Assembly (NCBI GenBank): GCA_012295275.1 | Contig: CM022670.1 | Coordinates: 36,270,001-36,334,000 of the forward strand | Direction of reading: 5' to 3' | DNA length: 64,000 nucleotides | Origin: Chrysomallon squamiferum | Taxonomy: Eukaryota; Animalia; Mollusca | Shown here: piece after piece, positions 72-34,210 of the stretch | Position numbering within the stretch: the stretch's first letter is position 1 | How the letters are laid out: each line of letters begins with the position of its first letter | The notes under the pieces: model-generated | Told to the model about the DNA's origin: nothing | Seen by the model: the letters and a program-made list of their open reading frames with translations, nothing else | Database searches by the model: none | Translations under genes and position numbers: made by a program

Positions 72-3000
72 CAGGTAGCAACACTGCACACTTAATTTAA
101 CAAAAGAACTTATTAAGAAATGTAAATACTGAAAATACAATGCCTAACAAATTTTGATATTTTTCTTTCTAAACTGCTTTGGTAGAAAAATATTACAATA
201 CTTTTGTTATTTTAATATGACCTTCTTTTGTATTGAAATTGGTTGCAGCAACATTGTTTTCTCAACTTTCTCCTCTTCTTCTTGATCATCCTCTGAAAAT
301 GTATGAATATGTTTATAATATAAAAAATATATTTCTTTACAACATAAATATGATAAATGAATTACTGCATATATTATAATTAATTTACCAAATTTAGTGT
401 AATTAAAATTTGTTTCAAATCAAAGGTGCTGATTTATCCTATATATCCTGGAAAATTAAAAAGATGTTTCTAATAAAATATTTGATTAAAATGAATAATA
501 AAATCTCACCTGTTTCAAACTTTTGTTTTACATTCTCCAGTGGCACAAATGCAATCCATATAAACATGGGGAAAATTAGGAAGGCACTCAAGTATATCTG
601 AAAATGTACAAATAAATATATGTGAAATGGCTGTTTAATTTTTATTATTTTTAAACTGATACATAAATCTGTACACAAATTACAGACAACTAATGTCAAA
701 ATGTAAGTGTAAAACATTTTTCTTCTATATTTCTTCAAAAGTTTAATTAATAATGCCAAATAATAACACTTCAGTGATTGAGTATTTATGTTCATTAAAT
801 TACTGACATAGATATATATATATATATATAGAAAGAAAATAATATTTTACAAACCTTAAGCCAGACTGGCAGTTTGATGCGACCTCCCCAGTCAAGTTCT
901 CGAATCTGAAGACAGCCCAGCCATTTCTGTGCCAGCCATTTCTGACAGCAAGGGTGTGCTATGAAAAACTTGTTGTTTCCCATTTTGGCAATTTCAACCA
1001 CTGTTTTGTTATTGAAATCTGAAAGTTTTTTGTTCAGTGCATGGAATGCTTGAATGCTAGAATCTTCATAGCATAAATCTAGCATACTGACAGCCATCTT
1101 ACCAAATTCCCTTAAAAATCAACAACAGATATTGAATTATGCAGAAAACTTTCAAAGTAATTCAGTGGTTTAACTTAACTGCATGAAATAAAAAAGAAAA
1201 GATAGGATAAAAAACAAAACAGATGATCAGATAACAATATTATATTAAAATGCAAAAATATAACACTAAAATTATTTAAATTTAAAATATTTTTTTTTGC
1301 AAAAATTGTAATTCATTTAATAAAAACATTAAATGATTAATACTAAAACAGAAACATTTTATACTATTAACAGTATTAATTTGAGACATACACAGCAGTA
1401 GCTTTTAATTTTTTCTTCATGTCAACATCTTTGCAACAATCTTTGGCCAATCTGTGAAGTAGCATGCTCACTATTAATGCAACAGCAATAGGATCTTCAG
1501 ACTTTTTCCAAAATACCTTAGCTAAGATTGGCCTATTAGTGAGAGCTGCCCACAGTACTAGTGTTGTTGTTGCCTATCAAACAAAATAGCTACATAACAC
1601 GAAAATACTAATAACGATAAACATTACAATCAATCAAAAATCATTAATGGTAAACTTTAAAACATAATTTTAAAAAAATAATAATTTAATATATATTTTT
1701 TTTTCATATTAAAAAATGTAAAAGAAATATTTTAGAGTATTTTAGGGGTAACTTGACAAGAGCTACAAAGACCTACAACTACTTAATATGTGAATTCTAT
1801 GACCAACTAAAATATGTTCAGTGATTCAAATTTTTTAAATTTTAAGGAAATAGCATAAAAATTATTTTAACAAATACAACAAGAATTAAAATAATAATAA
1901 TTTTTTCCTTGGATAAATGTGCTGTTTTACATATAAACATGTTTAAAACTTTACTTTGCATAAAATAAATTAATAATAAAACATTCAAATAAAATTTAGT
2001 TTTCAGATATTGTTTGTTGCATTAATGTTAAAATTAAAAATTAGACAAACAAAATACTATATTTATTTTCAATGTATATACTGTATTTTTAACATTCTTT
2101 TCTTGTTTGGTATTCTAGATATATACAATAAATCCCGGGAACCGAAAATTTTATTTTTTTTAAAAATAAATTTAAAAGATAAAATATTATTCTGCTCAAA
2201 AAGATATTTTGTAAGCAACAATAATCTGCAATTCTTGAATTACCAAAAAAAAAAAGAAAAAAAAATTAAAAACAGAAAGTTATACTTCTACCAAATCATT
2301 CAAACATTATTAAAATAATCATGCAGAATGTCATAAAATATTTAATAGTAATATGTCACAAACAAAAATTAATAACAGACATGACAAATTAGTAGTAAAA
2401 AAATTATTCAGTAATTCGAACTATTTTTAATTTTTTGTTAACCTTTGTTAATTTAAATAAGTTTTGTAACAAGAAAAACAATGAAACTATATCCTTACCT
2501 AGTTCAAATTATGGCTGAAATACAAATTTAATCCTGAACATTGGTAAAAATAAAAAATATAAAAATAATGTTCCAGAACAATGATAAATTAGTAATTTCA
2601 TTAATTTCTTTTACTTAAAAAAAAATGATACTCTAAAATAAATGTTTCTTTGCTAGAAGCAATGTATAATTACACACATGCACACATCCATACACAAATC
2701 ATGCTTAATTATCCCTTTAGAACAAAACAAAAAACTACGGTTTTTCAAGACTGAAATTGTAGCTAATTGTTTTGTCCAGTGAAATGGATTTTTCTAGGGC
2801 ATGATCTCATACCCGTCTTTCAGCAACATCTTTGTTAGTGATGTAGGTACCCAGTGAGTTCATTGATAATTCATATGGGTTAACTAGTTTCTGCAGTTTG
2901 GTGCATCGATACAGAATACGATTTAACTCACATCTGTCATCTTCACAAAAATTCCCACTCAGTGGACTAAGAGGATTCTAAAAAGAGAAAAACAATAGTG

Positions 3001-6000
3001 CTGACAGTAGGCAAAGAACAAAGGTAAGGAATGTGAAATAAAGGCTTATATTTTACCTTTAATTTACTTAACACTTAATTATATAACTATTTAAAACCAA
3101 AATAAAACAAAAATATTTTACTAGATGTAATCAAAAGATACAAAAAATATTAATCACTAACATTGTGACTTATTTAACAATTATTAATTCATTCAAATGA
3201 ATATTAATTTAATGAAAACATACTTTAAATTCAGGAAAAAACATATTTTTATGAAAGTTCTTATTAATTTTTATTATTAATAAATGAAATAAAACTTGAA
3301 AAGACTCCTATATAAAATTATCTGAAATACATTTCATATATTTTTGAAGTTTTTTACTCAAGACCTCTTTCAAGCATTTCTTTTTTGCTTTTGAGTATGC
3401 ATACACATAACAATGAATTACTTACCAAAGCTTTACCAAGAACACCTTCCAGGCAAACTCCAATAAAAAATTCTTTGTCACGTGCATTTTCAAATAGATT
3501 GTGTAATCTCTTGTGACTCAAATATCTGTGGACTTGAAATCCTTTATCAAGAAATAGCTCAACAAAATCTTCTCTGCCCTCTCTCAGCAGTGCCTGATGA
3601 AAAATGTGATTTTCTACCTAAAATTAAAAAAATACAGCGTTAGCATTTCTCTGTTAATTAAAAATTACATTATCTATATTTTAATAAAATTTCAGTTGTG
3701 TTTATACAGCATTAAAAAAATGTAATAATTGTTTAATTATATTGTGTGCCTTAGTAATATTAAATTTTTGAATATTTGTTGATTCAATTTCATACCCGTA
3801 TCCTGGTCAAACTGTATTTTTGATAAATTTCTGATTTGGCAAGATCACATCGATTCCAGTCTAAAGTAAGCTGTAGATCACGCTGAATTTGATCTCTCCA
3901 TTTGTGACCAAGCTTCCTAGTCTGAGCTGTATTAAAATATAAACAAAGATATTCTAACAACAAACACTCAAGCCAAAAATGTATTTTATTTTGTTTGAAG
4001 ATACTTATTTGTCTCCTTTAAAAATTTGTAATGCTTTTACTTAATTTGTCAATGAACGGTTAAGAGATGATAAATTCATTACTGTTGAAGCTTGTCTACA
4101 TTTATATAAAACAAAAATCTACAACAAAAAAGAAAAGGATTTATTTCTTTGAGACAACTATTAATTCACATTTATAAATATTTTTACTTCAAACATTTAA
4201 TTATTTAAGACACTCACACTTAAACAAGGCCATAAGGATGTATTTGCTTAAATTGGATAGATCAGATCTTCTGTTTCCAGTATCCAGTATTGTTAGGTAT
4301 GTCAAGGTGTCCTGAAAGAATTATGATTATAATCTTAAATGTTTGATAACACAAAATAAATAAAAGTGAAAAATAACCATTTTAAAAAACAATTGATGCT
4401 TTATTATAATTTATAATTAGCAAAGTCAAAATGGAAAAAAAACACAGAGTGGTTTGGTAAGCATAAAATGTGAAATCTTGTGCAAATAAATAATTAAAAT
4501 ACTTCTGGGTTTTTTTGGTCAGTAATAAGATGATAATACCTGATGTGCAAGACTAGCACACTCCATAATTCTGTCTCTACATTCAATAACAGCAAGGTCA
4601 TCCTTCTTGAATTCCTTTGGGAATGTTTCTTTTACTCTCTTCATCAGTTCAGACTTGATGTAACTAATTAACAAATTAATACAAAATAAATAAATAAAAT
4701 ATATATATATATATATATAGCTATAGAATTTACTTTAAATCTTTGATAATTACAAAATTAAAGAATAATAGTGCACTGAAACCTTGCTTATGTTTATAAT
4801 ATATAGATTTGATGAATATTATCATTTGATGAATTACATCATTCTTTTTGAATAGATATGATTGTCATAAAAATTAATAGTTATAGTATAAATAATAATA
4901 ATGATAATAACAAAAACATTTGAACTAAATTGCAATAGGTAATAATTTAATTTAACAATTATTGAAATGTTCTCTATACAAATATCAGCATATAAGCACG
5001 TATTTGAATTTCCTTTTTTTAATTAAAAACAAATAAGTTTATAGTACCTTTCATGTTTTTCTTCATATGCAAAAGCAATGAGATCAGCTGCCAAACCAAA
5101 TCCTTTCATGATGATAACAGGAATTTTCTTCTTTAACAACCAAAGCACATGGTCAATCTCAGGAGGTCCACCCTGAACCATCAGAGCTATAACAGGTGTA
5201 TTGGTGTTGGGATTATTCTGAGATTCTCCAGTATTCACATCAACATCACTGCTGGTTCCAGCTTCAGTAAGGAATAAAGAGAATTAATTCAAAATCATAT
5301 GCATTTTATATAATATATAATTTAAGAAAATAAAACCATAAATGGAACTGCAAGACAAAATAAATGCTTTTTCCTTTTTTCAAAAAAAAAAATTTTGATT
5401 GATGAACAAAAAGATAACCTTTATACTTTATACTGTTATTCAAAAATATTATCTCTATCAACAAGTTATTAACCACTTTGAAACTGGTTAGTTGTTTTTT
5501 ATATCAATATAAGCAGCCATTTTAGTTTTTTTCTGAATTTAAGTAGTTGTTTAAAATGATGACATTAACAATGCAATGGGAACTTACGTAGAGTTGTATT
5601 ACTTGACACCATTCTCCTATATCTCCGAGCTCTGCCAACTGGCTGAAGAAAGCGAACTTCCAAATTGTACCTAAAGGCATTTAGTTCTTGTGAAGTTACA
5701 TCTTTTGCCATTATGAAATGAGTGTGAAAAGGATTCAGATCAAATTTTGATGACTGTGGTTTATGTCCTCTGTTCTCAATTTGCTTTGGCTGAGCATGCT
5801 ATAAATAAATCAGACTGCCTATAATTAATTATTGATGCAACCAAATAATTATTTTCATTAATTTCTGGAACCAAACAACAGTTTTTATTAATTTATGTAA
5901 TTATTTTCAGAGTATAATGGCTAAGAAACACCCTGCTTCAAAACTGTTGTCAGTAAATGGGTAGAAGTCTGGTTCTGTCAAATAAACATTTTAAAGACAT

Positions 6001-7350
6001 TTCTGAAAATATTTATAAAGGAGAATAATAACAAAAATATAAACTGAGGAAAGTGGGTAAATAAAATATGGTATAGAGATTCCTATGATCAGTGTTTTTA
6101 ACAAACTGAAAACACAAACAAATATGTGTACCAAACATTCTTACCTGTCCATTTAAGTGTTCTGAATATGATATGCAGTCGTAAGAAGTTACACCTAATA
6201 TTGTTAATTTTGGTACTTTCTCCAGTATTTGTATGTTCTTCACTTCTAATGATTCTTCTTCTTGGCATTTCCGTCTTGCCATTTCATCGCAGGCAGCATC
6301 TCCAATATACTTTGACACTCCACTGTCAAAACCATTAGTCACTATCCACATTTCTGTCAGATTTGCTGCCTGTAATTAAAACCTTTGTATTCTACATTAC
6401 ATATAAATTCCTGTTGACCTGATGCAATTGTTTTTCCATAAAATACTATTTACAAACATCCAGAATAAATATATTTTATCCATGTAAAAAATATTTATAA
6501 AACATTATGCAAACAACAAAATTAAGTTTTTTCCAAAATGCCATTTCTCATTAATTGAGTCTTAAATCTGAATATGTTGTTTATTAAACCTCAATAATTC
6601 CTGTTTTAAAATCTTCAATGTATTTTTCATCATCCCACTGTTTGAAGTGTTTAACACTGGAGATAACTGACAGTACAATTTTTGGTGTTCTCCGTTTCCA
6701 ACCATATGCCATGTAATTGGCAATGTCATCAACAGGTGTATCCTTTGGTATTATTACATAATGTCGGTGATCTTCCTAGAATAAAACAAAACCACTGTAT
6801 AAAGTAAATGATGCATAACCATTTATTTCAGTTTATGAGAAATATGTTTTATCTTTTTATTTGATTTTTCATTATTCCAATTTTAAACATATAAATGTTT
6901 CTTGTTTCTTAGGAAGACTCAAAAGTTATCAAAATATATTTGAATTAAATTCTGGAAATGTAACTATCACAATTATAAATTATATACTTGACAAAATAAC
7001 AATAATATAATGTAAAGATAAACAAACGATTACTGTTTTATTTTGTTCTGATCCCTCTTGTATAAACTGTATAGTTCCTCCAAGAAAATCGGGCATTAAA
7101 ACATCTGTTGATGATTCTCTGCTGACAGCTGATCCAACACTTGTAACAGTTTCATATACTTGATCTGCATAACTGCAGTCTTCACTGGTCTCTATACTGT
7201 GAGTGGTTAAATCATCCAACATGATTTCTTGTGGCTCTCCACACTCAAAATCCCATCCTAATTTTTCAGTATTATGTTCCTTGGATGCGACATTCTTATT
7301 TGTTGGTGAAGACAATTCATCTCCATGACCATCATCTGGAAGTAAGTATA

Positions 7351-7390
<40 letters not shown>

Positions 7391-7543
7391 TGGGATTTGT
7401 TGTTGTTGTTGTTGTTCTGTTTTGTTGTTGTTTTAATGATTTATATTTATCATAATTAAATGTTATGCTTACACTGAAGTAGACTGTCAGAAATTTTTTC
7501 AAATAAATTTAAAGTTCTTCTAAGCATTAAAGTAGTAGTAGTA

Positions 7544-8250: not shown

Positions 8251-9964
8251 GACAGTCATAAATTTAATATTTAATCTCAGACGTTTATTATGATTTTTTT
8301 TTTGTTGTGAAAAAATGATAATGTCTTCTCATTTTAAAAATATAATTTTGAGACCCGTCTGTATCTGTTTATAAAAAAAGTATTATATATTTTTTTAACA
8401 GATTATTATTAAGTATGGTTGTAAAATTAAACAAATATAGATCGATATTTTATGAAATATATTTATAACAAATTTTAATCCTCATTAGTGAATTATATAA
8501 TAATAATAATAATAATAATAATATATATATATATATGAGTCAAACTATCATTATAAGTTTCATATAAACTACATTTTGGTTACATTTTCAAAGACTTACA
8601 ATCCTCTTTAAAAAGAAATATATATATAATTTAGCTATGTCATTAAAATGAAAAAAAAAAAAAAAAAATAAAATAAAATAAAATAAAATAAAAATAATAA
8701 TAAATAAGCAGTAACAAATAAAACAAAAAAAACAAACAATAAATGTACATTTTCTTTTTTTTTTATTGCAGATCAAGAATTTTTCAAACTGAAAAGCACT
8801 ATTTGTTATCACAGAATAACTATTAATAATATACCAATTAACTATGACATATTTAGTCTTTTTATTTGTTTCCTCTATACATTTAAATTTCCATGACCAC
8901 TTTACATAAATCAGCAATTACCTGAAGTGATAGATAAAATGTTGAACACATTAACATATTTTTTAAAAAAAGGAATCTTTTTTATTTTCTATGATGTCAG
9001 TATGTCATGAACATAAAATAAAATAACTAATCTATGCACTTGACTATAAACAAAAGTACATTTTAAAAGTCAAGAACATTTTCACAGAAAAGAGTATTAG
9101 CTAAGGTACAAAAAACTATATATCAGTAATAAACAATTTTAAATGAATCTGCTTCAGTTTTTCTTTTAGTTTTTTGAAAGAAGAAAAAAATAAAAATCCA
9201 GCAACAAGCTCTTGGAATTCAAGAGTATTTTTTTAATATATATTATTCAACTAACGCACTTAGAGAGAAAGGTGGAAAATGTTTCTGCAGTACAATCCAT
9301 CACATATAAGGCATGACAAAACAGACTTGTATTGTTTTGGGTGAACATCATTAATCCCGTATCAACTAAAAAACACCATAGTTCAGAATTATAGATGATC
9401 TTTTTATCTGAACACAAATATTGCACAGAATCTTCTGTCTTGTTGTTAAATATTATTCATCTCAACAAAAATAAAATTATGTAACTACGTAATGACTTGA
9501 TCAAACAGAATTAAATTATTGCAAAATTATTAACGCAAAATAAAATGCACACTGAATTAATAATCACTGCTGTGAGATGATTTATTTTGTAAATTGCACA
9601 GACTTTAATCACACAAAATGCAGTAGCAGTATTCAGTAACAGGGAGTCAATCCATCTTAAAATAATGCCATAAAACATACCTTTTGTAAAAGGTAAAAAT
9701 TGTAAAATGTGAACTACACAAAAAAAAACAGCTATTGCTGTACCATGACAAAATTCAAAGTCACACAAAGAGTTTCATGATATAATATATTGATTTATGG
9801 CATTCATGCACCACTGACATTTAGGTTAACATTTTCCATTGTGATAGAATAAGTCATTAGACTTTCAACAAGAACAGCAAATTAATTAAAAAATTCACAC
9901 TACATATTTGAAAATGAATAAACAATAATGTTCATCTCCTAAAGCTATATTTCTGGATTGATTT

Positions 9965-12900
9965 TCAAAGAGCTTCTAGATCAACATGGCGTAGGTCAGG
10001 ATATTTTGCCTGAAAAAAACCCATAAACATGATTATACTATCTATTGCAGACATGGACCACAAAAAATGCCTAAATCTATTCTAAATGATCAAACAGTTA
10101 CGTGCATTGTTTGTGTGACAGTTATTTTTAACTTATGCAAGTAATAAAAAAGGTTGCATTTGTTGTCTTTTAATTGAGCTAACTAAAACTGTTATCTTTT
10201 TGTGCATTAAGAATATATTTAATATTAAGATAATACTCTGATAAATTATTGGTGTCCATTTTGTTATACAAAAACATTAACCTCCTAACAACATCTAAAA
10301 GTTAAAAAAAAAAAACCAAACCCCCCACAAAAACAAACCAAAAAAAACAAACAAACAAAAACAAAATACACTTGCTTTAAGGATTTTTTCAATTCGATCA
10401 ACCTCTTCGCCCAACATATCTATTATTTTCTCTCCATGATGCAGCATAAATATCTCAACATCTTCTGCCTTTTTAAGCTCATGCATCTCCTAAAGTATAA
10501 GGAACTTATAAACCATAAAACACAAAAATAATAGTCTTTAAATTCAAAAGATAATTTCTAAAACTGGTAAAAACATAACTGTTTATTAATAAATGGAATA
10601 TCAATAAAAAAAAAAAAAAAAAAATTAACAAAAAACCCACTAGTATATATAAGTCACACTGACTTTAAGAAATAATAATTAGACATCTATAACGTTACTA
10701 GATCATCACTTTAATGGGCAACAGTGAATAATTCTCACCGCCAGCAGCTGTTCCAAGTCCAGTTTGTAAATGTAAGCTCTGGTGATTTCTCGTCCATCAA
10801 AGTCAACTTCAGCTTTAAACCTTACTTGTCCACCCATCTCTGTGGCTTTCACATCATGTAGTGATCTGTTGCAATCAAGAATATAACTGTATGGCAAATG
10901 TTTCTGCACATTTTATTAGAAACGTGAAACAGTGTTTTTAATGTGTATGATATTAAAAACAAAACATTCTACATCTGATTTGAGACTAATACCAGAATCC
11001 AAAATGAACTGCTGGTAATGATTAATGCATAATTCTTTGAAAGAGGAATTATACTGAAACCAACCTAATCATTCTGTCTCTTTCTAGATCTTGACTTATT
11101 TGGTTCTGAACATCTTCTGGAATAGACCTGTAAAATGAAACATAAACCATTTTTTTTTTTTTTTTTTAAATCATACATAAAAAACACTATAAATGTTTAA
11201 CATATATATAATACAATATATGCAATATGATCAATTAATTATTACCTTCCAACGAGGGCTTGAGTGTTTGTGGTAATGATGAAGGTGGCAACAACACCTA
11301 GCAAACCTCCAATCATGATGGAACCAAGAGAATCTGCAAATGGGTTTTTGGTGTAATGGCTGACACACAAACAGGTAGCAGCTATCATGACTCCTGTGAC
11401 AGCTGCTAAGTCTTCAAGAAGTACCACTGTGACATTGGGGTCATTACCTCGAATCACTGAAAGAGGAACACTTCAAAACTATACTTGCAATTAATGAAAC
11501 ATCAATTGCAGGATTATATTTACTATTAACAATCAATTAATGGCTAAAACACAAACATGTCAAACTGGTCCCAACCATTTCTGAAAATGTAAGAAAAATG
11601 TCAGAACACTTACCATATTCCCAAAATTTAATTTTCTTTTTGCGTGAACTCTTTCGAACTTGATTGATAGCTATAATCAAGGTTGCTGAAAAAACACACA
11701 CACAAAAAAATACAAAAATTTTCAAAAGTAAGAAACTGAAATGAAAATATGTTGGTGTTTTTGTTACTATAATCTGATCATAAGTAATTTTTAATCCCAC
11801 AGATTTTTACTGCTGATCTCTCATAAAATTATTTTCCTGAATAGTAATTTGACTATAATTTCTTTGAATGGATTTGTTTGTTTTCATTATATTTTCTCCT
11901 GAAGATTATATAAAAATATGTATACATTTGAACATATCAAAATTCTTCAATTTTATGGGGGGGAAAAGATTTAGTTAGTTATGAATTATTAAAAATGAAA
12001 AATTACCTCCTTCAGACAACAATGATCCCATTAAAGTAGCAATTGCCTGAAAATAAAGGTTTTAAAACATAAAAATATTCTCAACCTGAATTATTTATCA
12101 CAGGTAAAACCATCAATTGAAAAAGGTATCTTTTCTAAAATATCTTTATTTATTTACAAAATAATCAAAATAACAAAATACAATATATTATCAAATAGTT
12201 TCTATAAGTGAAGACATTTGATGTAACAAGGTACATTAAATAAGACCTGACATATACAAATAATGAAAAGTAATCATTATTATAATTAATTCACCACAAA
12301 TAATGTTTTCAGATAAAAAACTAAAAAAAAAAATCTTCAAATAATTTCTCTTACTGATTTATTATCGAGTCTGTGGTATCTAGGTAAATAATTAAATCTG
12401 ACAGACATATTCTAAAGGCAACATGTTCAATGTTATCAATATCGAATAAAACAGAAAACTGCATCAAAAATGAAATCCATTTATGTTAATCTCCTAACAC
12501 TTGACATGAATCATAAAACTTACCCAGGTTAAAGAGCCAAGTGGTTCTGGATGAATAAAGCCCTGAATTCCATGATACACAGAAAGGCCTGTACCAAGGC
12601 AAAAAATACCCACTCCACTGATCAAAGATGAAATATGACGAAGATTCACATATCCATATCTGTAAATGGATTAAAAATTAAGTTAACAAATGAAAGGGAA
12701 ATAAAGAAAACTATATATCAAAAAAAAAAAAAAAAAAAGCAATTAAAAATTAAATATAATCATGCTCTTTTTGAATTAACTGAAATGTCTGATATAGAAC
12801 TTTCTATTGTCTTTATTTTCCTCTTACAAAAACCTGATTTGAGTTATAATAGAATTCATTTTATTATTTACTGTTAGTTATGGGAAAAGAAAATCATTTA

Positions 12901-15900
12901 TTATTTCCCATATTAAGAAATCCTTAAAAATTATGCACACAAAAAGCCTTTGCATGATAATAAATAAATGGAATTGCACAAATAATATAAAACAATTTTG
13001 AATACACTTACGGATGATGCGAGTCAGGCTTGTGCATAGAATGGTATAAACCAAATCCAAGAATTATCTGCAATGAAGATTTACTGATTTTTATAATGCT
13101 GAATTTTAAACATCAACAGTTTCTTAATACACATTAACAAACTAACAATAGCATTCAAAAGAATCTGTATTTAAAAATATATTTTTATAATGTTGTCTTC
13201 TTTTTTAAGAAAAATTAAATAATTCTTGTTGTTTTTTGTTTTTTCATTTATATATGTCAATGTCTTCTGTAGGCCACATCTTTTGTTCTTTAAATAAAGA
13301 GTGCCTGATATAGAAAAAGGGAATTTTACTTATAATAATTAACCATATTTACCTGATTTAGTGTATCAGCTATTGAGTGTATAAACTCTGAAAACATACT
13401 ATGTGAGCCAGTGTAAGTCCAAGCAAGACCTTTTATCAAACTGTTTAAGCCATTTCTGTAAACAAATTTTACATTACAATTTATATTTTAAGAAAAATAA
13501 ATACAAAAAAGAAATAATCTTTAAAAATTCATGCTATCTCTGTATTGCATCGTCTAATTTAATAATCTAGTTTAATAAATTTGAATTAATAGAATTATGC
13601 AAATTTTATAGAATTCATTAGTCCTAAACAAAATTTGTAGTAAAAGTAAAATAATTAAGAACTATAAAAAAAAATATTATTACCTTATGTTTTTAGAAAA
13701 TTGTTAGGACATACTTATAAACACACTTACAGACAAAACACAACACACATACACAAACACATGCACACACATTAATGACATAGATGTGTATACATGTATA
13801 AATTAAGATCTACCATTAATCATGAAGATCTTTCTATCTGCTTTGTATTTGTAACATCAAGAGAAAATATACAAACCCTTTCAGTCCCCAGACTTACATC
13901 AAAATTGCAGACATAACCACTCTGCTTGACCCTGAGGACCAAAAAGATTCTGTCTGAAAATCAAATAAACCAGAACAATCTAAAACAGAAACAGAACCAA
14001 TTTGTTTTTAAGACCCAAACAAAGTAAACAGTATGAACTATTTTTACACCAACTGGTCTTAAATTTATTATTTGTGAGTTATAATACTGATTATGCAAGA
14101 TTTTTTGGATTATATCTTCAGCTATTACTTTCTGAACTTTCTCTTTGAACCATTTATCACTGTCAGATATTAGTGTTTTGGGTATGGGCCTTTCTGATAA
14201 TGTTAATATCCACCTAATGATGAGAAACATAATAACAACTGTAACAAGTACAGAGATTCTTACCATCTTAGAATCATTAAACATGGCAAATTCTGTCTGT
14301 CTTAAATTTACCCGATGCTTGTGCTGATCAATTATGGCACGAAGTTGAAATAAATCATCTGTAAAAGAAAAGTCTTGAAATAGAAAGCACTGACAACTTT
14401 GAATTGTAGTTTTATCATTTTTATTTAAAAAGAGGTAAAACAATAAGAAAATATAAATAAAGGTGGACATTTATGAGGACATGTAAAGGCTGTGTGCTTG
14501 AATATATAACTAACTGATATATATATTTTTTTAAACAAATTTTAAAAATAAAACCAGATGTAAGTTAAAGGATTGTAATTTTTTTCCGAAAGTTTTTTTG
14601 TAAGTAAAGATTTATAGTAATTCTGATATTTCAGTTGAGTGTAATTATAACTTTTTATAACAAAAACAAACATTTTGAACATTTTCACTTACATCTTCCA
14701 TCATAAAATCTTTCTCTTTCCAGTAACCTTTGTTTCTCCTTGGCTAAGTTTTCTAAACTACCCCAACTTTCTTTTGCACTGAAATGGAAATCGTATGACA
14801 CTTACCAAACATAAAAACATTAATTCATTTACTTCTGAAAGTAATTTGGAAGTTCAGACTTTAAGCAACATCATGTGTAACCATTTTGGATGTAAAACTT
14901 TGACACATGTTTATATATTTTAAATGAGTATAAATATATTTTTAACAATTATGTGTAAAAACACTAACAATAATTATTTTGAGAGTTTTCCCAATCCATT
15001 CCAAATACAACCAAAAATACTGGTACTTACATTGCTTCGACATCAGAACGTAAATACATGGTAATTTTAGGACCATATTCATAAGGGCTTCGGCGATAAT
15101 ATTTGGGGCATTTCTCAAGGTCACTGAAAAAAACAAATGCAGTGGGAAATTACAAATTAATTTAATAATGCAGAACAATAGCTGAAATTTTACTTTCAAT
15201 CTGTCATTGTGTGACAAATTATATTTAAATTTTTATTTTTTAAAATAATTATTATTAGAAAATAATTGTATAAAACATATTTAGCTAAACAGTGTTCCAT
15301 GTACAATAAAAGTTGAATATTAATTACTAAACAAACAAACACACCTTGGTTTCAGCAAGTACTCATTCATGGCCCGTACAGGAAGAATGTAGATATTGCC
15401 AGTGTAACTATAATCTAAGGAACTTTTCCGTGCTCGTGGTGTTACTAGGAACAAAACAGAAAAATGCTAAACTGCTTATAGTTTTACTAATTTTATTTAC
15501 AAATAATTCCTCTAGTAATCATAAAAGGAGTCTAATACATAAATAAAGTGAAACATATCCATTAAAAGGATGCAGAACAAGAAAAATAAATCCATATTAT
15601 CTTCTTTTTTTTAATACTGAAAGAATAAAATTTAATCTTTAAAAAAGGGGAGGGAAAAAAGGCTTACATCTGAAATCAATTAAGTATTTAATTATCTACC
15701 TTTGAGAACTTTAGGTGGTTTTGTGTCTGTTGCTGAGGACTTGGAGTCAGATGGTTTGGGTAACGGGGGTGTAACTGGTTCATCTGAGGATGTTGAAGGA
15801 GGTGGTACAGATGTCTGACTGACAGGTGTTGCAGTTGCTGTAAGTTTACTTTTGACACCATTGCCAGCTGGTGGAGAATCTTTTGACACTGAACTCAGTT

Positions 15901-16369
15901 TTCGTTCCCAGGCTTTGACAGTTTTCAACCAAACCTGATGGATTTTCTGCACTTGTTTTTGTGAAGAAAAATGTCTCTGACATTCTGTGGAAAGATAAAC
16001 AATAAAATAAACAGATCATAAAATTATTAATAAGACAAGTGGTTTAAAATATAATATAATTTTGTTTAAATCTTAAATTGTAATTCATCTATTTGGGAGT
16101 GCGGGACAGTTGATACATACTATATCTTAAGAATATTTTGAATAATTCTAATACAGATAATCATTTCAAAATTAGATAAAAATCTTAGATAAAAAAAGTT
16201 CATCAATTTTATTTTGAGTACATGCTGCTTTATATTAGTATATACTCATCTTTAATATAAATATTATTATTGAGTTACCTCTACAAACAACTGGAGTGAC
16301 TTTAGTTATCTGTGACTTTACAGCGTTACTCAGAATCATTGGAATATCAAAGGCAATTGGTCGCATCAT
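9965..16369 (-). CDS. SLC30A9: Zinc transporter 9 (cation diffusion facilitator, mitochondrial-type ZnT9)
   Basis: Exons (approx.): 16369-16280, 15984-15700, 15445-15345, 15124-15031, 14778-14693, 14358-14264, 13953-13898, 13455-13353, 13067-13012, 12658-12524, 12046-12007, 11686-11613, 11457-11246, 11127-11065, 10865-10739, 10489-10376, 10009-9965. ZnT9-type peptides: PVRAMNEYLLKPSDLE..YRRSPYE..MYLRSDVEA..WGSLENLAKE, GSHSMFSEFIHSIADTLNQ, DPNVTVVLLEDLAAVTGV, SLHDVKATEMGGQVRFKAEVDFDGREITR, C-terminus PDLRHVDLEAL*. Confidence 0.95.
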
Positions 16370-23825: not shown

Positions 23826-24100
23826 TTAAGCAGAGTTCTCAAAAAAGTGTACAAGACTTTCCAAGTCATAATTATCTAAAATTTCCAACAATCCTGCAAC
23901 TTTGCCCTTGACATTTTGACCTTTGAACTTGAACTTGTCGATGTACAGATCTGTGATCATACCTAAAAAAAAAAGACAGAAAGTAGATAAAGCTTTTAAA
24001 ACCTTATCTTATTATAATTAAATATCTAAAAATACTTAAAAAATTAATATTTGTTTATTTATTATTATTATATATTTTTCTTTAAAAGAGCTTAATGTAA

Positions 24101-24155
<55 letters not shown>

Positions 24156-27100
24156 TTAATAATAATAATAATAATAATAATAACAGCATATATTATAAGA
24201 CAAATGTGATTTAAATGTCTTTCTATTCTAAAACACAAATGACAAAAAAACAACAACACCCATATTAAAAGTTATTATGAAAACCATATGAAGACCATTA
24301 TGAAGATTAACCAGCTATTAATCTGTGACTGTTTTGCTTAATATAAGAGAAAACTCGGATTATAGATGACAAATATTTACCATATAATCTTTCCAAGTGA
24401 CAAGGTTGTTTTTTAAATTCTTCTTGAATTTTGTCTGCATCATCCAGGATTTGTTGATACTCAGAAGAAAGAAAGTTTGTGTTCTGTTCATGTATAGCAA
24501 GCTCCTAATAACAAAATTAAATAATATTTATTTGTAACTCTAATGTTTAAAACAATCAACATATATTTGACAAAAAAAAAAAAAAAAAAATTTAATATTT
24601 GTTTTTATTCTTTTGCATAATTATCAAATATAAATAAGATAGTTTGGTAAATACTTTTTATCTGAAATATGAAAAGTTATATTAGGGCTCAAACAGTTTC
24701 ATTCAAAAAGGTTCTCACTCTTTTAGCTTAGATTCCCCCCACCCCTCCATATTATTATATTTCTAACATGATGTTTATCAAACAAGAAGTGCAGGATAAA
24801 AAAACAGTTCTATACCTTTAAACCATCAATGAGCTGAACTTTCTTAGCAAGCAGAAGTTGAGATTCCAGTCTTGGATGAATCAGACTGAGCGTATGAGGT
24901 ATCGAATCATCATTCACATCTAAAACATACCACAGTTATTTACTTATTAAATACATAACGGACTGCACATCTGTCAAATAAGATCTCTCCCCCAAAAAAC
25001 ATACACAAATATTTACAACCAAATAATAGCATGTCTCATTAGTGAAATAAAACCTATTCACATTTTTACTCTTATATTATTTATACTTCTGAAACACATG
25101 TCTTAACAATGTCTCTTTGAGACAAGAATTTTTCTGTTACATATTGTTAATCAAATGAAGATACTGACTATTTACAAAGGTAACAGTAGTTTAATGTCAG
25201 CTGGTTCAAAAGTTAAATGGAAACATCAGTAATGGATGTCTTGACAATGTCATTTTGAAATCGGAATATTTCAATTATATGTAGCTAACCAAAAGAAGAC
25301 TTTTGACAGGTAGTGGTAATATAATAGTTCAAGACTAGCTAGTTCAAAAGTTTATTACAGTTCAAAAATACAAGCCTTAATGATGTGATTTTGAGACAAG
25401 AATATTTTTGTAATAGTGAATTATCCGAATGTAGGTTTTGAAAGTTTACATAGGGAATATAATTTTAAAGGTAAGCTCCTCCAAAAAATAGATATATTTA
25501 CTCACCATATGTGATATCTAATCTTATTTTCTTTTTAGTTGCCTCTTTTGACAAAATATCCTTCAGAATAGAGATAGTGGAGATATTGTCAGATCTGAAA
25601 ATAGCTTCACCTTTCCTGAAATTATATTCAAACAATAGATGTTGCTAAACTTATTTACAATAATATTTGTGGAAATGTGGAAATTATATGACCTGTAAAA
25701 TGTGTTAGTAAAATAATATATCAATGTTATACTTTATATTTTTATATCACCTATAAAATGCATTTGTAAAATCTAATGATAGTGTTTTTAATAACAAAAT
25801 CACCTGTAGAAATCAAAATTAACAGCAAAATCATCGAATTTGTTTCTATTTGAGTGAACTAGTTTATCACACATTAACATTTGGTTCAATAAATATTTGA
25901 GTAATTAATACATTTTCATGAAAGATTAACAAAGGAGATTTGTAAACTGTAATACTGTTACTTCCTTACTTGTAGCAACACTCAAGCTGTGTGTTAAGAA
26001 ATGTTGACTCAAAATGGAAAGTGGCTGTGTCACCTGCTGGTGTCCTTTCAGGAAGTTCAGGCAGACAGAAACATATCCAGTTGTGCATCTCTGCTAAACT
26101 GAATGATCCTGTCAACTTTAATGTATTGTATGGTCTGAAATAAAAATCAAAGTATAGCTTTGGGGATAACATATCTGTGTGAAGCAAAGAAGGCTTTGGA
26201 AACATGAAAATTGTTGCTTTATAATGAATACATATATTGGTGAAATGAAAATAATTTGTAACTATTCTTCTGGCTCAAAAAAAACTTTCAAAAACAAATG
26301 GACACAAAAATGTTAGCAAGGGATCAGTTGTTATTTTAAAGTTTTCAGTAATAGAGAACAAAACTTAAACAATATGGTAAAATACTTTATATCTAAAAAA
26401 GAAAAAGAAAAAATTTAATTATTTTTGCATGTGGCCACAATAGTTTGAACTTTGATGTATTAATTCTGTATGTGTTTTTTCTGTGGGTTTTTTTTGCAAT
26501 TAACTTTAAATAATACACCACTTATAATGTAATTCATTTACTCCATATTATTTCACAATATTTTGTTGCTACAAAAAAGTTTCACATAAACTGAATATCA
26601 CAAATTACCTTTTGTCATCAAAAACATGAGTACGCTGATGCAGTGACAGTGGTTTGATCAGGTATTGCTTCACCTGACAGATCTTGGGCTGTATTCTGGG
26701 TGTCACATAGGCCTGTAGAATTCCATGTTGACCTTCTATAGATCTGACCTTCAGTTCCAGTCTGGTTGTGTTTGCTTGACACCTGTATGTGGCAAGAAGA
26801 AAGTTTCCTTCCTGGAAAGTCGAATAATAATAATAAAAGTAAAAACAAAAACAAACAAACAAACAAACAAACAAACAAATAAATAAATAAATAAAATTAA
26901 AATAAATATCAGTAATTCATAAATATTTAATTTCAAAAACATTTCTCTAAAGTAGAGTAATAATAATTCATATGTTAAAGCTAATAAGATTTTCATTGAC
27001 AGAATTTAAATTAAATCTATAAATTTTTCAATCTCAAAAACATTTAATATTTTAATTATTTTGATAAGTGCAATTATGTTTCAGTAAAGTGAAGTTGTTA

Positions 27101-30100
27101 TTTGTAATCAAACAAATAAAAATTACTTACATCTGGAGAACAATGGCTGTAACTAACAACTGCTGAATTCTTCTCAACATCAAGTAAATCTATGGGGACA
27201 TCACTCTGAAATGTCATTGGCACATTAGCACTTAATTAACACAATTTGTTTTGTTAAATAACATAAATCTCAAATTTTTAGTAGTAACTATTTTAAATAC
27301 TGACAGAATTTAAAATAAATATATGAGAATAATATATAGGAAATTCTAATAAATTATTTCTCTAACAAAATGTTTTTATTTTATTATTTTTATTGATTTT
27401 TTGTTGAAAACTCTCTCTTTAAGAATAATTTGTAATATTCCAAAATTAATGTGGAAATAAAATATTTTTTCTTTTTTTAAGTAAACCATTCAAAGAAAAC
27501 ATACACCAATAAATAATAATAATAAATAATTAATAATTAATAAAATAAATAGAAACAAAAAAACAAAGATTATTATTTAAAGTACATCATTTCAGTTCTT
27601 GAAGCTAAAGATCTCAATGTGAAACTGAAAATAGAAAACCTAATTAATGAACTATACCTGTAATAGAACATTGTCTATGGGCATTTGTAGTTCTAGACTC
27701 AAAGTGTAGCTGGCATCTTCACGATTTAATACAAATTTGTCCTTGATACTAAAACAAGGCACAGCAGAAACAGTATTGCTTGAAAATGCTGACTTCTGGT
27801 ATTTTTCTCTTTCATCCATAACTTTCTTCTGGAGATCATCAAGTTCCTGTCTAAAATTTTAAAACAAAAAGTCATGCAAAAATTACATAATAAATAACAT
27901 TTCAATGTCAAATTTAGACTATTAAAATATATAGTATGAATTCACTTAAAACTGTTGATGTAATATGTTAAATCTGGTTATAAAAATAGATAAAATTTAA
28001 TTCCTTGCTGCAATTAAATATTTGTCACCCAAATGCACCTAAAAAAATTAAAAAGAAGAAACTGAAAAAGCTTAGTTTTAATGCACATTAACCGTAATAT
28101 TTAATGTAAATACTTTTAGATAGTACAGTTAAAGCAAACATTATCAGTAAACTGAAAAATATAATACTAAAATATAATACTAAAATAACACTAAATATTT
28201 CCTTATTTATAACTGTAACAGAATTTTATGAAAAAAATATAAGTACCAGCAAAATTGTTAAAATGTTAAATACATATAGATGGTATATATATATAATTTA
28301 ATATAAAAACACAAAAAGGAAGCAATACCATGTAAGAAAAATGCATGCTGAAATGTGTTAATGAAGCAAGATATTCACTTAATTCCCTTCAACAGTGTTA
28401 AAATGATTATCATGCAGATTACAATAGTGAAAATATAAAAGAAAAGAAATAAATGAAAAATTATTCATAATAAAACAGGCAGGTTTCAAAAGATATATTT
28501 CAACACACCACAAGAACAATCAGTTTTGCCTCAAACAACAATAATTACAAATTAAAAACTGACATAATAAACAAAAATGTATACTAAATCAAACTAACTA
28601 CAATATATACATGTATCAAAAATATATCAAACAATCAGCCATGCATTAAATCAATGGTAATGTAATGTGCACACATGATGGAAACCTCCAAGAAGGGAGG
28701 TAATTCTACATACTTCATGTTTAACAGCTTTGACTGAGCTGCTGCATCTAATGCATTTGCTTGATTTCCAAAAGCTTTGGTTTGCTGTTCAGAGGTTAGT
28801 CCAAAAATCCAGCCTGTCACATGCAACATACAAAAGCAGAATACAGACAATAGTAGCATTTACATTTATAATAGAATACACTGCAGTGTTTACACCATGC
28901 ATCCAAATTAGTACTGGAATTTATAGAGATTATGTAAATCAGATTTTATTATGTATCATTAGTAACCTGTTATTTGAAGGAACTTGAACATGTAACTAGT
29001 AATCTTTTATTTAAATGAATATGAACCAACTTCTTAGAATTAAATATAGAATGAAAATATTATGAATTTATTCCGTCTGATTTAGCCATTGGTATTGTTC
29101 AAGATCATATTTAGAATTTTATCTGTAAAAGTCTCTGAAAAATAAAATCAGCATAAGTGTTTAAATAATATTTTATTAATTTCATGTACAAAGACATTTG
29201 GGTTACATGATGAAAAACAGATTTCTCGTGAATGGGAACTTCTAAAAGAAAGCCCAGGAAAGAATTAACCAGTACCAGGATGAAGCTTTTTCTTGTGTTT
29301 AGTATTTGCTGGGATTGTATGTATATTTATGAAGCAAATTACTGATTTTATAGTACATGCAATGTCTTAATAGAGGGATCAAAATCAGTTTCTACTGAAA
29401 TGGAAAAACAAAGGGGAATAACTCCTTAAATGCAATTACTATAATTTAGTATGAAAACTTTCACCAATCACAAGTAAAAAAAAAAAAAAAAATAAAAGAG
29501 AAAAAAAGAGTAAAATTTTAAATAATGAAATATATTTTACATTATTTAACAAAAACACTATGTCTTTAAAAATCTTGATCCCTAATAAATACCATGCTTA
29601 TACAAATATTCAATGCATTATACCACATAGGACACCATTTACAATAATACAGTTATATTTACGTCATGCCCATCATGCCATTAGGCAGCTAGTTACCTCA
29701 GTGAAATAATTTTTTGTTTTCCCTCAGCAGTGAATCTGAGAGCATCAGATGATGAGTCTTTGTACTTTGCCTCAGAGGTCAGAGAAAAAAGCCAGCCTAG
29801 AAACAGGTGTATCTAACTCTTGTAATACACTAATTCCTGCACTGGTACCCAGTGAGAGATTAAATGCCCAGGATATTAATATTACTTTTGCATCTTTAGA
29901 TAAAGAAAACACTTTTAAAATGTATTAATACTTCAAAGTACCTTCGTTGCCATATAAAATTATCATTTAAGTTTGGTTAAGTAAAGTTGTATTTTATTTT
30001 TAATAAAACATTTTCAAAGGTAGTTATCATGGGGAAAAAATGGTCTGACATATTATATCGTACCAATTCATTTTATACAAGACAAAATTAAAATCAAATT

Positions 30101-33100
30101 TCTGTTGTTACCTCCATATGTTGCACATATAATTTCGTCATAGCCTGGGGTGGAGACCACACCACCCTGAACAGAAGTGACACTCTCACTACATGTCTGC
30201 AATAAACATTGAAAGAAATTATGACAAGTATACAAAATTTTATAATTTTATTGCCTTAAGAAATTTTTCAATCAAATTTTCTAAATATTTTAAAAGCAAA
30301 GGTTTGAAAATTAGCAGCTGTAGCTGAAACCAAAAAACAGTTGTATGTGAAAGATAGGGAGAGTGCAATGGAGAGACAGAGAGATTATATATATATTAGT
30401 ATTATAGGTATATACATTATATATGTGTGTGTTTGTGGGTGTGTCAGGGAGAGGGAATAGGAGATAGAGGGAAAGTATATCTATTTTGTTGTATGAATAT
30501 AGATATGTAACATATGTGCATAAAATTAAGTATCCCTATATTTTTCCTTAATTCAAAAAAGTCCATAAACATATATATTTATAAATTCTAATATGACTGG
30601 TTGATGTAAAATAAAAAAATTATCTTTAAAATGTATATGCTGAAAATATTTAAATCAGATAATCAATTACAAAAATATATAAATAACTAACACATTTTTT
30701 TATAAAGTGTTGGAAAAGAAAAACAAGAGGAAATTCTGAAAGTACATACATGACTAAATCTATGAACTGGTTCATCAGCCTCATCATAACTGTACACTTC
30801 AATCTGACCATCATCTCTGCCCACTAGCAAGTCAAATACCCCATCTCCTGTTATGTCATAATTGTCAATGCTCAACACACCTGCATTAAAGACAGATACA
30901 CAATAATGAAAGTAGTGCAATGTAGCAGTTTAACTTAAAGAAAAGAAAGCAAATTACAAAACTCATGTGAATTGTTATTCAATGATACATTCAGAAAAAA
31001 TTAAAGCAATAAAAATTATATATATATATATAAATATAAATAAATATAAAGTTAATTTGTTTTCTAATAATACTAAATTAAGAATTTAATAAGCTGGCAT
31101 ATTTTAAATAAATTCCAAAATACACTATGTGAAATTTAATCTCACAAAATGTCAAATTCCTTTATTCATCAGATGTATAATTGTTAATTACAAATATAAT
31201 TTCAAATACCTCCACTTCTCTTTTCATTGGGCAATTCCCATCTGTGTGTTGGAGCCAGACTGAAAGTAAAATAAATATAGATTAAACTGATTATGAAAGG
31301 TTTTCATATAATTGATAATTATTATTAGTATTTTAAATTTCAGTTCAGAAAAAGAATGAAATTCTAAATATTTTAAAAAATATCTTTTTGACATTTGAAA
31401 TTAATATTTTACCTTTTCTGTTTTTTTACTAATCATTAATAATGTATAATTTACTCAGTTACATCATCATGTTTATAAACACCAACATCACTGATCAACT
31501 AGATTTGTTACTTCAAATTCTTTGCATTTATTTCTTTGTTTTCATAATGTTTTAAAGAAAACAAAATTCAAGTTATGCAAAGCTTACATTCCAATCTGCA
31601 CCATACCAATTCGTCCATCAGCTGTACCATAAAGAATTTCATTGCCTTCATCCCCACCATTTTTAGCATAAAGACTCAACACAACTGGTGGACCTGGTAC
31701 CTCCATTTCATATAACAAATCAGATGACTAGAAAAAACAAAAACAAAATGTTTACAAATAAAACAAATCATAGATTTATTATGTTTTCAAGAAGTTTTAA
31801 AAAAATGTGTATAGATATATAAAATCGAAGTATTTCCACTACAAAACTTATTTTAAAAATTGCACTCTTTTAAAAACTTCTCATAGCAGTTTATTACATA
31901 CTTGACTAAAAGAACCTTTAACAAACAAAATGATTTACATGCTTGCAATTTATTTATTTTTGTTTTATGCAAAATGAACCGAATCACAACTGTTACTATT
32001 TAATTTCCTGAAATCCAAAATAAATATTGTGTAGTATTTAAACAAACAATTGCTAATGAAAACAGAAGTCTTCAGGTTTCTTTATCATTAATTACAGTTC
32101 TTCTATCCAAACGTTTATCTTCAACAATATGTCATTACTTTAACTGTATTGTTTTTACTTCATCCAAGTAAAAGTGCTATGATTACTTGATATAATCATT
32201 TATTTTTATAAAATTCATTCTATACCTTTGCATTGCTCCAGTTCATTTATTCTTATTAAACAGTATATTAACTCTGAGAGCTAAGCATATATTTACAATT
32301 ATAACTCAACCAGTCTTTCTAGCATACATTTTTCTCTTTTTTATTAATTACAATATAATTAACAATATAGCTAGTCCTCTGAACCAAAAAACAGTACCAA
32401 TATATTAACAGGGGTCCATCCATTTGAAATTAAAATATTTTATTAGAGATCAGATGAACAGTACCTGTAGAACTCGGAGCACCCTATCTTCACAGGCAAG
32501 AACAGGAATGACATCTGGTATTCTGTCTAGAGGCAGGCACAGTACATCATTAATTTTGTCTCCACACAGAAAGTTGTTCAAATTTTTACAATCTCGATAA
32601 TGGTTGTAAATGAAATTGCCACAAACAAGCAGATCTGAGCTCTCTACATACCTGAAATTTAAAATTCACAATATTTTAGTTAAGTTTTATGAAATTATGT
32701 TGGAAGAACAATATCTGATGAATTCTCAGTATAAATCATTTTTACTTTCTTCAAGCAGCCATGAAACCTATTACAATGATTAAAGCATAAAAGAGTAATA
32801 ATTAAAAACGTAAAATAAATAAATAAAACTAACCACAAACAAATTAAAAATTTCTTAAAATATCCTTGAAATATTTCCAAGGAATTAGTATTAACTGTTA
32901 AAGCAGTAATAAATAACAAAATGACAAAATATACTTACATGGACTGTATAGGTTCAGACATGTTAGAATCAAAAGTTAGAAAATTTTTGCCCTTTTTTGT
33001 GAATCCCTTAACTTCAGGTCCAGCTGCTATGAAAATTCTTTCACGAGGCTGACCTGTTTGTCCTCCTAATTCTAAACTGGTTATCTTTGGACCAGGCTGA

Positions 33101-33950
33101 GTTTTGAAAGCAAGCTGTAAATAAATATTCTCTTGTAAACAGAACCAAATTTAGTGACTTAATGTAATCTTGAACAAAAACATTTTAAACTTATCATTCA
33201 TCATATGATAAAAATCTTATGGTTTTAAAATGTTAATAATTAAAATTAATAATTAAACATGAAAAAAAGTATTTAAAGATAACATCTGTAACTTCTGAAA
33301 CATTAAAAAAAACCAATAAGTAATACTTTCAATGTTACTCAAAAAACATTATTAAAAAAATGTAATCTCAAAACACCAATATTTATTATTTTTATTCTTT
33401 TTCTGTCCAGATATTTAAGTTTTTAACATTTTGTCTATGATTGTATATATATATTATTTTTGTTTTTTACCTGTACTTCCCTTTTCCTCATTCCAAAGCA
33501 CTGAAGTACACCTCCACAATCTGCTATTGTAATCTACAAATTAAGTCAAATGTTCAGTAAAAATCACCTGTACACAATTATAGTCACACATTAAAACAAA
33601 TAATAATAAACAAATAAACAAACAAACAAACAAACAAATAAATAAGTAAAATAGAGATCATATCAGAATTTAAAGTTTGTAACACAAAGATGTTATTGTC
33701 CTATACCTGAATAAAGTTTTTAATATGCAGTAGTGTATTTTTATTTTATTTTTTAGAAATTAAACTGAACATCAGTATCTTGTTGTAAATGTCAAATTAC
33801 CTTTTGCAGTTTTCCAGTAATAGGAAGAAGTTTCATTGTTTGAGGACATGTGATTCCAACCTGAAATTAATGACAGAAATTTTATATTTTTATTTTTTAT
33901 AGTAATATTTTTAAAATGTCAATAAATAACGTCACAGCTTAAGACAAAGG

Positions 33951-33988
<38 letters not shown>

Positions 33989-34210
33989 TCTCTAAAAGTT
34001 CTCGAGGCATAAAATGTATTACTTTTTATTTTTTGAAATTAGTAGTAATAGTCGTAGTAAAGATATATTATGCGATCATGTGAAATCGAAATTATTTCAT
34101 ACACGAAAACATATTAAAACAATATGGAATATTAAATATTTACAATTTTTAATGCTAATAAAATAATTAACCTGTATGTAGTCAACTCGTGTTAAATTTA
34201 ATTCCATCAT
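23826..34210 (-). CDS. BBS7: Bardet-Biedl syndrome 7 protein (BBSome subunit)
   Basis: Exons (approx.): 34210-34172 ([13 protein letters not shown]), 33860-33801, 33533-33471, 33114-32939, 32651-32465, 31727-31588, 31259-31210, 30881-30750, 30196-30111, [29796-29697 or 28813-28714], 27851-27658, 27205-27131, 26811-26609, 26133-25970, 25616-25506, 24918-24816, 24504-24381, 23962-23826. Strong similarity to vertebrate BBS7 as recalled: [101 protein letters not shown]. Confidence 0.97.
24100..24183. repeat. (AAT)n microsatellite in the last BBS7 intron
   Basis: Read directly from the sequence. Confidence 0.95.
28714..28813 (-). CDS. BBS7: BBS7 alternative exon B (100 nt, phase 1-2): [34 protein letters not shown]
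   Basis: Acceptor TGACAG|GC, donor AA|GTATGT, open frame, same length and phase as exon A and homologous to it (GWxFxLTSE...K...K). Confidence 0.85.
29697..29796 (-). CDS. BBS7: BBS7 alternative exon A (100 nt, phase 1-2): [34 protein letters not shown]
   Basis: Acceptor TTTCTAG|GC, donor AG|GTAACT, open frame, phase-compatible with the flanking exons 30196-30111 and 27851-27658. Confidence 0.85.

Follow-up and report, generated by a model that had tools for sequence, protein, structure and literature searches.

Two tandem versions of exon 10 in BBS7 of Chrysomallon squamiferum and the probable exchange of a BBSome loop at the second ARL6 contact

The BBS7 gene of Chrysomallon squamiferum was found to carry exon 10 in two tandem versions (A and B), of which only one can enter a transcript if the reading frame is to be kept, and the choice between them probably exchanges the loop that forms the second contact of the BBSome with ARL6. 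The pair lies in a stretch of 64,000 nt (the window; CM022670.1, 36,270,001-36,334,000, assembly GCA_012295275.1), within which all positions are counted. The pair represents a genuine alternative exon, old and conserved, at an interface that is defined structurally and linked to disease.

Gene model and exon pair

The gene was modelled by hand over its full length (34210-23826, minus strand), with all introns being of the GT-AG type and many of the exon joints also found in RNA contigs. E11 was found to match PDB 6vbu_7 (E 6e-18), and the protein was identified as BBS7 by its make-up (beta-propeller, hx, GAE, platform and hairpin), with four Pfam domains found on the Gigantopelta proxy P0074. 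Its closest named relative was that of the gastropod Gigantopelta aegis, at 91% identity. The features concerned are listed below.

23826..34210, minus strand: coding gene of BBS7, each transcript having 18 exons and the gene two copies of exon 10 (hand-built exon model)
30112..30196, minus strand: E9, constitutive 5' neighbour of the pair, ending in phase 1 (model and contigs)
29697..29796, minus strand: exon A, residues 311-344 (sequence and the E9>A joint in run X2)
29004..29394, minus strand: third acceptor region, with acceptor 29394 spliced from E9 in run X2 and a stop after 15 codons
28814..29696, minus strand: A-B intron, 883 nt
28714..28813, minus strand: exon B, in the same role as A, main form in assembled contigs
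27851..28713, minus strand: B-E11 intron, 863 nt
27658..27850, minus strand: E11, constitutive exon 3' of the pair, with the remaining helix and the start of the GAE domain

The intron between E9 and A measures 315 nt. Exons A and B are each 100 nt long, of phase 1-2, preceded by AG, followed by GT and open in frame, sharing 49/100 nt and 11/34 aa. An earlier note on this DNA had placed both exons, with their peptides and intact splice sites, exactly where they were confirmed here; the flanking junctions that it gave (30111 and 27851) were each one base off, with E9 found to end at 30112 and E11 to start at 27850. The frame of BBS7 is 713 aa with A alone or B alone, and inclusion of both exons or of none leads to a stop at codon 352 of the model, in keeping with the frame shift that had been predicted for either case. 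Being adjacent, similar, equal in length and frame and without a stop, A and B possess the sequence properties of a mutually exclusive cluster (PMC5740500).

As a control for chance resemblance, 463 candidates from both strands of the window (open, flanked by AG and GT, 85-124 nt long and of length 3n+1) were scored with a profile built from the BBS7 segments of non-lophotrochozoans. Exon B scored 23.8 bits (together with a shorter form of itself) and exon A 19.0, with the next best candidate reaching 2.5. No third, decayed copy was identified in the three cluster introns of the window by three-frame translation and profile scan. Elsewhere in the window the following were identified.

~795-7432, minus strand: multi-exon TRPM-like channel gene (Pfam TRPM2 and SLOG matches)
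11242-11472, minus strand: exon of the cation-efflux (zinc transporter) family (Pfam scan)
13961-14470 and 15692-16015, minus strand: open frames of protein-like composition, with no Pfam match in the scan

The alternative segment and its place in the BBSome

Alignment placed the segment at residues 312-346 of bovine BBS7, which upholds its correspondence to a single vertebrate stretch, as previously proposed. The bovine linker 320-335 has been described as disordered in the free BBSome and as adding a beta-strand to the central sheet of ARL6, and the Bardet-Biedl mutations L317V, H323R, G329V and R346Q cluster in this segment (PMC7018513). The same loop sits on the nucleotide-independent back of ARL6, with the mobility of BBS7 dropping once ARL6 is bound (PMC7311171). 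The coiled coil with BBS2 spans BBS7 residues 339/340-363 (10.1101/699223) and, given this start, the exon enters it with no more than its final ~7 residues; taken with the extent of the loop, the exchange of exons thus concerns mostly the helix cap and the loop that binds ARL6. The hinge and the BBS2 coiled coil had been emphasised in the earlier note, which holds for these last residues; the middle of the exon is instead the ARL6-binding loop.

The A and B isoforms of Gigantopelta served as structural proxies and were modelled with AlphaFold2 from alignments of 50 rows each, 26 of which were shared (pTM 0.50); the same layout was obtained for both, namely a strand at 312-317, pLDDT below 50 at ~322-333 and a helix from 334. 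In these models, either exon is predicted to form the last strand of the propeller, a flexible loop and the opening turns of the heterodimerisation helix. Binding of ARL6 by the mollusc loops is proposed from their equivalence in position with cattle, the only source from which the contact is known.

G at position -9 and a final R were found in 19/19 A sequences, with B having Ala at -9 in 21/26 and a final K in 25/26, counts that are partly circular because the A/B labels were assigned by eye from motifs. The differences that are most diagnostic lie at the start of the helix and thus not in the loop alone, and that of the final R/K may reflect donor strength, since the junction splits the final codon. 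A mutually exclusive exon at this place might accordingly tune head geometry or BBS2 pairing and not ARL6 binding, a role that is unlikely but has points in its favour: in the proxy models the heterodimerisation helix takes its first turns within the exon, the strongest A/B signature is at the helix start and the last residue, and the coiled coil of residues 339/340-363 with BBS2 begins inside it (10.1101/699223). However, those core positions of the coiled coil that fall within the exon (K-I/L and L, close to its end) are common to A, B and single-exon outgroups, and the majority of exon residues make up the strand and the ARL6 loop.

Splicing of the exon pair in RNA contigs

Five public runs were found to cover the BBS7 stretch of C. 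squamiferum, all as assembled contigs, with four being RNA from one study and the fifth being run X5. Contig depths were not taken as isoform ratios. The E9>B joint was identified in RNA contigs of at least three of the four RNA runs (X1, X2, X3) and the B>E11 joint in at least two (X1, X3), with E9>B, in bridging A, being a junction of the kind that characterises mutually exclusive clusters (PMC5740500). In run X2, E9 was found to leave by three routes, namely to A, to B and to the third acceptor at 29394.

The junctions E9>A, E9>B and B>E11, expected from the earlier note, were thus present in contigs; A>E11 was not found in the contigs of the three RNA runs covering the exon-pair stretch, and strict mutual exclusivity in C. 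squamiferum is for this reason supported only in part. The sole contig with A passes the A donor and ends ~60 nt inside the intron, and complete contigs of C. squamiferum carry only B. No A>B joint was present among the contig joints, in which rare forms are dropped, and joint inclusion would in any case shift the frame. Exon A is likely to be a minor form in this species.

RNA contigs that lie wholly within the A-B intron stop at one of two positions, 29075 or 29004, with AATAAA close by at 29072 and 29011, and a 608-nt contig of run X1 is entirely intronic (depth 7.6, compared to 13.7 on the main path). Positions 27901-28422 had zero RNA cover in the three runs examined there, which argues against uniform DNA carry-over as the source of the intronic contigs. 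The third acceptor and these contigs may represent slow splicing or a splicing intermediate, a poison exon, or intronic polyadenylation.

A brake on expression in C. squamiferum, with E9 being spliced to A or to the third acceptor, the A donor left unused and the RNA ending in the intron or being degraded so that either no protein or a propeller-only BBS7 is made, would account for the A contig reading past its donor into an immediate stop, for the depth of the 608-nt intronic contig, for the spliced E9>29394 joint in X2 and for the ending of intronic contigs near AATAAA. This is nevertheless quite unlikely, as A is conserved through its last codon across species, and A isoforms of full length appear in the annotation of many species and in the assembled Logan protein P0091. 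Contigs also lose the rarer of two paths of equal length, and phase-2 GTAA donors commonly give a stop when read through.

Run X5 is DNA-like, covering introns at a depth of ~45 and tiling both exons. Compared to the window it has one conservative change in A (I341V) and none in B; as it differs from the window at specific sites, its source is probably an individual other than that of the assembly.

Distribution of the two versions in other animals

Among database proteins, both versions were identified in 21 species of mollusc (13 of them bivalves and 8 gastropods), with those of Ruditapes stemming from different contigs. Isoform pairs, which in RefSeq are automatic models, were found to differ inside this segment alone in 15 of the 16 comparisons made (13 mollusc species), with the sixteenth differing elsewhere, and the either-or use claimed in the earlier note is supported by them. 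In Gigantopelta, isoform X1 is matched by exon A of the window at 26/34 aa and isoform X2 by exon B at 23/34 aa. The nemertean Lineus also has two versions of the segment, and three are annotated for the brachiopod Lingula anatina (P0113, P0174, P0176), two of which are B-like and pair in the tree, which suggests a second duplication. The order A then B was observed in four ab initio models with both copies (Mytilus edulis, Sinanodonta, Biomphalaria pfeifferi and Bulinus). Database models in which both copies are fused (P0059, P0218, P0203, P0139) are likely to be mis-annotations.

Only B was seen in the protein sets of five caenogastropods and of Magallana/Crassostrea, and only A in those of Mactra, Pinctada and Haliotis cracherodii, absence from a protein set not being counted as loss. 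Among 36 mollusc-like Logan proteins examined, B was present in 29 (~19 of these being near-copies from one oyster group) and A in 2, with the segment missing in 5. A continuous frame from A to E11 was found in the bivalve-like Logan proteins P0091 (713 aa, on a 3533-nt contig) and P0098, and likewise in RefSeq models. No cephalopod or chiton names were present among the matches listed (one list giving 120 of 836), and the A segment of abalone, used as the query of a region-limited homolog search, retrieved itself alone (1/5 candidates).

A single version was identified in the deuterostome and cnidarian proteins inspected, which per cluster were 5/8 for lamprey, 2/3 for Apostichopus, 3/6 for Dendronephthya, 5/10 for echinoids, 7/7 for Branchiostoma, 2/2 for Ptychodera and 2/2 for Anneissia.

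A metagenome scan gave 80 loci, and nine loci spanning E9-E11 were scanned for copies. One copy was found in eight of these, including the annelid-like long-branch loci L045 and L051, and three tandem open AG..GT copies in the ninth, L009, which grouped with Capitella and Ridgeia in a quick locus tree (SH-aLRT 89).

L009, 5484-5583, 6128-6236 and 6543-6645: exon copies of an annelid-like locus, the first being A-like

A later exon of L009 contains an in-frame TAG near 9833, through either assembly error or decay. Five coral-like loci (L031, L066, L067, L068, L070) were found to be without an intron before the segment, with one being present in the bilaterian-like loci scanned; the segment is thus a separable module only where this intron exists.

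Variation of other kinds was also observed. The A versions of a limpet and of pulmonates (P0076, P0116, P0033, P0200) have lost an otherwise invariant Trp and are strongly basic, with a net charge of +4 to +7, and the pulmonate A version is 3 residues shorter. Mussel and oyster isoforms (P0014/P0015, P0030/P0100, P0043/P0054) show a 5-residue length difference independent of exon 10, possibly a microexon elsewhere in BBS7.

Age and origin of the duplication

Profiles trained on bivalves sorted 20/22 gastropod copies, and those trained on gastropods sorted 20/23 bivalve copies. Across 13 species, mean identity was 0.45 for A-A and 0.52 for B-B, compared to 0.36 for A-B within a species. In an exon tree of 60 rows and 35 columns, from which 20 near-duplicate rows (removed by hand) and Pomacea were left out, 15/15 mollusc A sequences were separated from 19/19 mollusc B sequences by a branch with 99/93 support. 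Lingula X3 and the first copy of L009 joined the A clade (93/92, unstarred), with the single annelid copies and the remaining Lingula versions joining B. The database isoforms and these identities across species bear out an old duplication with both copies conserved, as had been suspected. The split of gastropods and bivalves dates to the Cambrian, and the sequence comparisons make it likely that the duplication arose once, at or before this split. An origin common to all lophotrochozoans is plausible, being less firm than the gastropod-bivalve age. AU tests on the 35 columns of the tree did not reject younger origins, whether the duplication was taken as recent (p 0.058) or as confined to molluscs (p 0.06).

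The copies might instead be interchangeable, with the exon having been duplicated repeatedly and independently as a self-contained module between introns. In favour of this are the AU results, the few columns of the tree and the third copies of Lingula and L009, by which repeated duplication is seen to happen. The idea is nonetheless improbable, as A is closer to the A of other species than to its own B (0.45 vs 0.36), profile sorting works across classes and the order of A then B is constant. An assembly artefact or dead pseudo-exon, to which the presence of only B in complete contigs of C. squamiferum might point, is largely refuted and barely credible, as both exons are covered by DNA-like X5, E9>A is spliced and Gigantopelta, the closest named relative, has both versions as isoforms X1 and X2.

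Introns and motifs that may govern the choice of exon

The pentamer GCATG was found ten times in the 2061 nt of the three cluster introns, compared to once in the 6082 nt of the 15 other introns (p 9e-6), and was the top-ranked pentamer in the cluster introns, with one occurrence on the antisense strand. Against the window background its enrichment (p 1.2e-6) survives correction for 1024 pentamers, the motif having been noticed by eye before the test was made. The positions of the motif are given below.

A-B intron: six GCATG, at +19, +28, +100 and +337 from the A donor and ~88 and ~12 nt upstream of the B acceptor, with RBFOX binding being predicted from the motif
B-E11 intron: four GCATG

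Three sites therefore lie within 100 nt past A and one lies ~12 nt ahead of B, and the introns flanking the pair show the (U)GCAUG enrichment by which RBFOX exons are recognised. According to the RBFOX rule, a downstream site activates an exon and an upstream site represses it, with some GCAUG being unbound (PMC11874969). Sites after A and before B would under this rule mean that RBFOX favours A, a reading that is complicated by the GCATG sites downstream of B. TGCATG leans the same way in L009 (3 in 1825 nt vs 11 in 18042) and in the bivalve-like L023 (3 in 2040 nt vs 1 in 3199), but the insect-like, single-copy L072 is somewhat enriched too (4 in 4607 nt vs 6 in 17748). Motifs of the RBFOX type would point to a switch of neuron or muscle type, rather than to one between motile and sensory cilia or in sperm, as the earlier note had suggested.

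The U12-type splice-site consensus was used as a standard of comparison for the donors, and those of the cluster (GTAAC, GTAAC and GTATG) were found to be unlike it. With an A-B intron of 883 nt and ordinary donors, both steric exclusion (less than 50 nt from donor to branch) and U12 incompatibility could be ruled out. A search of the exon cluster of the window for docking and selector sequences of the Dscam type gave 34 inverted repeats (no shuffle control), nearly all AT-rich, with no evident one-to-two pattern.

Proposed mechanism and significance

In the preferred reading, that of a loop exchanged at the second ARL6 contact, the duplication would have arisen once, on the lophotrochozoan stem, with B presumably being the default form. 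In certain cell types, neurons for example, RBFOX binding just past A and just ahead of B would switch splicing to A. As A and B together are incompatible with the frame, nonsense-mediated decay could clear the wrong forms, removing transcripts with both exons or with no exon. By its nucleotide-independent binding to ARL6 the loop would, as in cattle, steady the BBS2-BBS7 head, and A- and B-BBSomes may differ in the strength or duration of their hold on ARL6 at the ciliary membrane. A wider proposal, put forward only tentatively, is that of a switch between two or three ARL6 loops predating the split of molluscs, brachiopods, nemerteans and annelids, in which A, chosen by RBFOX in neurons, gives a BBSome with its own dwell time or cargo.

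No description of mutually exclusive exons in BBS7 was found in the literature searched, which was mostly outside subscription journals, in line with the earlier note, which knew of none; the isoforms stand unremarked in automatic annotations. Mutually exclusive splicing is a well-known type, for which BBS7 is a new gene. Two or three long-kept versions of a segment on an otherwise identical protein could be grafted into human BBS7 to probe the second ARL6 contact. With four patient mutations in the segment, the role of the nucleotide-independent contact is a question that these versions could address. If true, the wider proposal would amount to a natural mutagenesis of a Bardet-Biedl hotspot and to an invertebrate counterpart of the retina-specific BBS isoforms of vertebrates. 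It also suggests a way of specialising one BBSome without gene duplication across types of cilia (gill, larval bands, sensory cells, sperm). For annotation, it is of consequence that ab initio models frequently fuse both copies or choose one.

Comparison with known systems

Exon 2A of BBS8 provides a retina-specific isoform of the BBSome pathway in vertebrates. Further retina-specific isoforms have been described there, namely BBS3L (PMC2841623) and a variant of BBS5 (PMC4750968). Like retinal BBS3L and BBS5, the BBS7 pair would give by splicing a tissue-specific version of one trafficking module, BBS3L being ARL6 itself. Unlike these isoforms, in which an exon is added or the protein shortened, an internal interface segment of BBS7 is replaced by a homologous one of equal length, and this in invertebrates.

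Compared to the tandem-duplicated mutually exclusive exons described in PMC5740500 and PMC9741552, the BBS7 exons are likewise neighbouring and homologous, of like length and phase, old and conserved. A length not divisible by three, by which joint inclusion shifts the frame, characterises 60% of human mutually exclusive clusters (PMC5740500). BBS7 differs from known cases in having a single version in the vertebrate proteins examined and one to three copies among lophotrochozoans. It was not found in the main text (term BBS) and 10 supplements of PMC5740500, nor in one supplement of PMC9741552.

Exons 7a/7b of unc-32 in C. elegans are controlled by RBFOX and UNC-75, with the upstream exon being neuron-specific and UGCAUG lying in the intron (PMC3585155). 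BBS7 also has a mutually exclusive pair with an intronic motif, the evidence being genetic for unc-32 and a motif cluster only for BBS7. In the bovine BBSome:ARL6:GTP complex (6VBV; PMC7018513, PMC7311171) the segment is the same by alignment, with both mollusc versions being predicted to be disordered. Cattle have one version, which is one residue longer than the mollusc segment.
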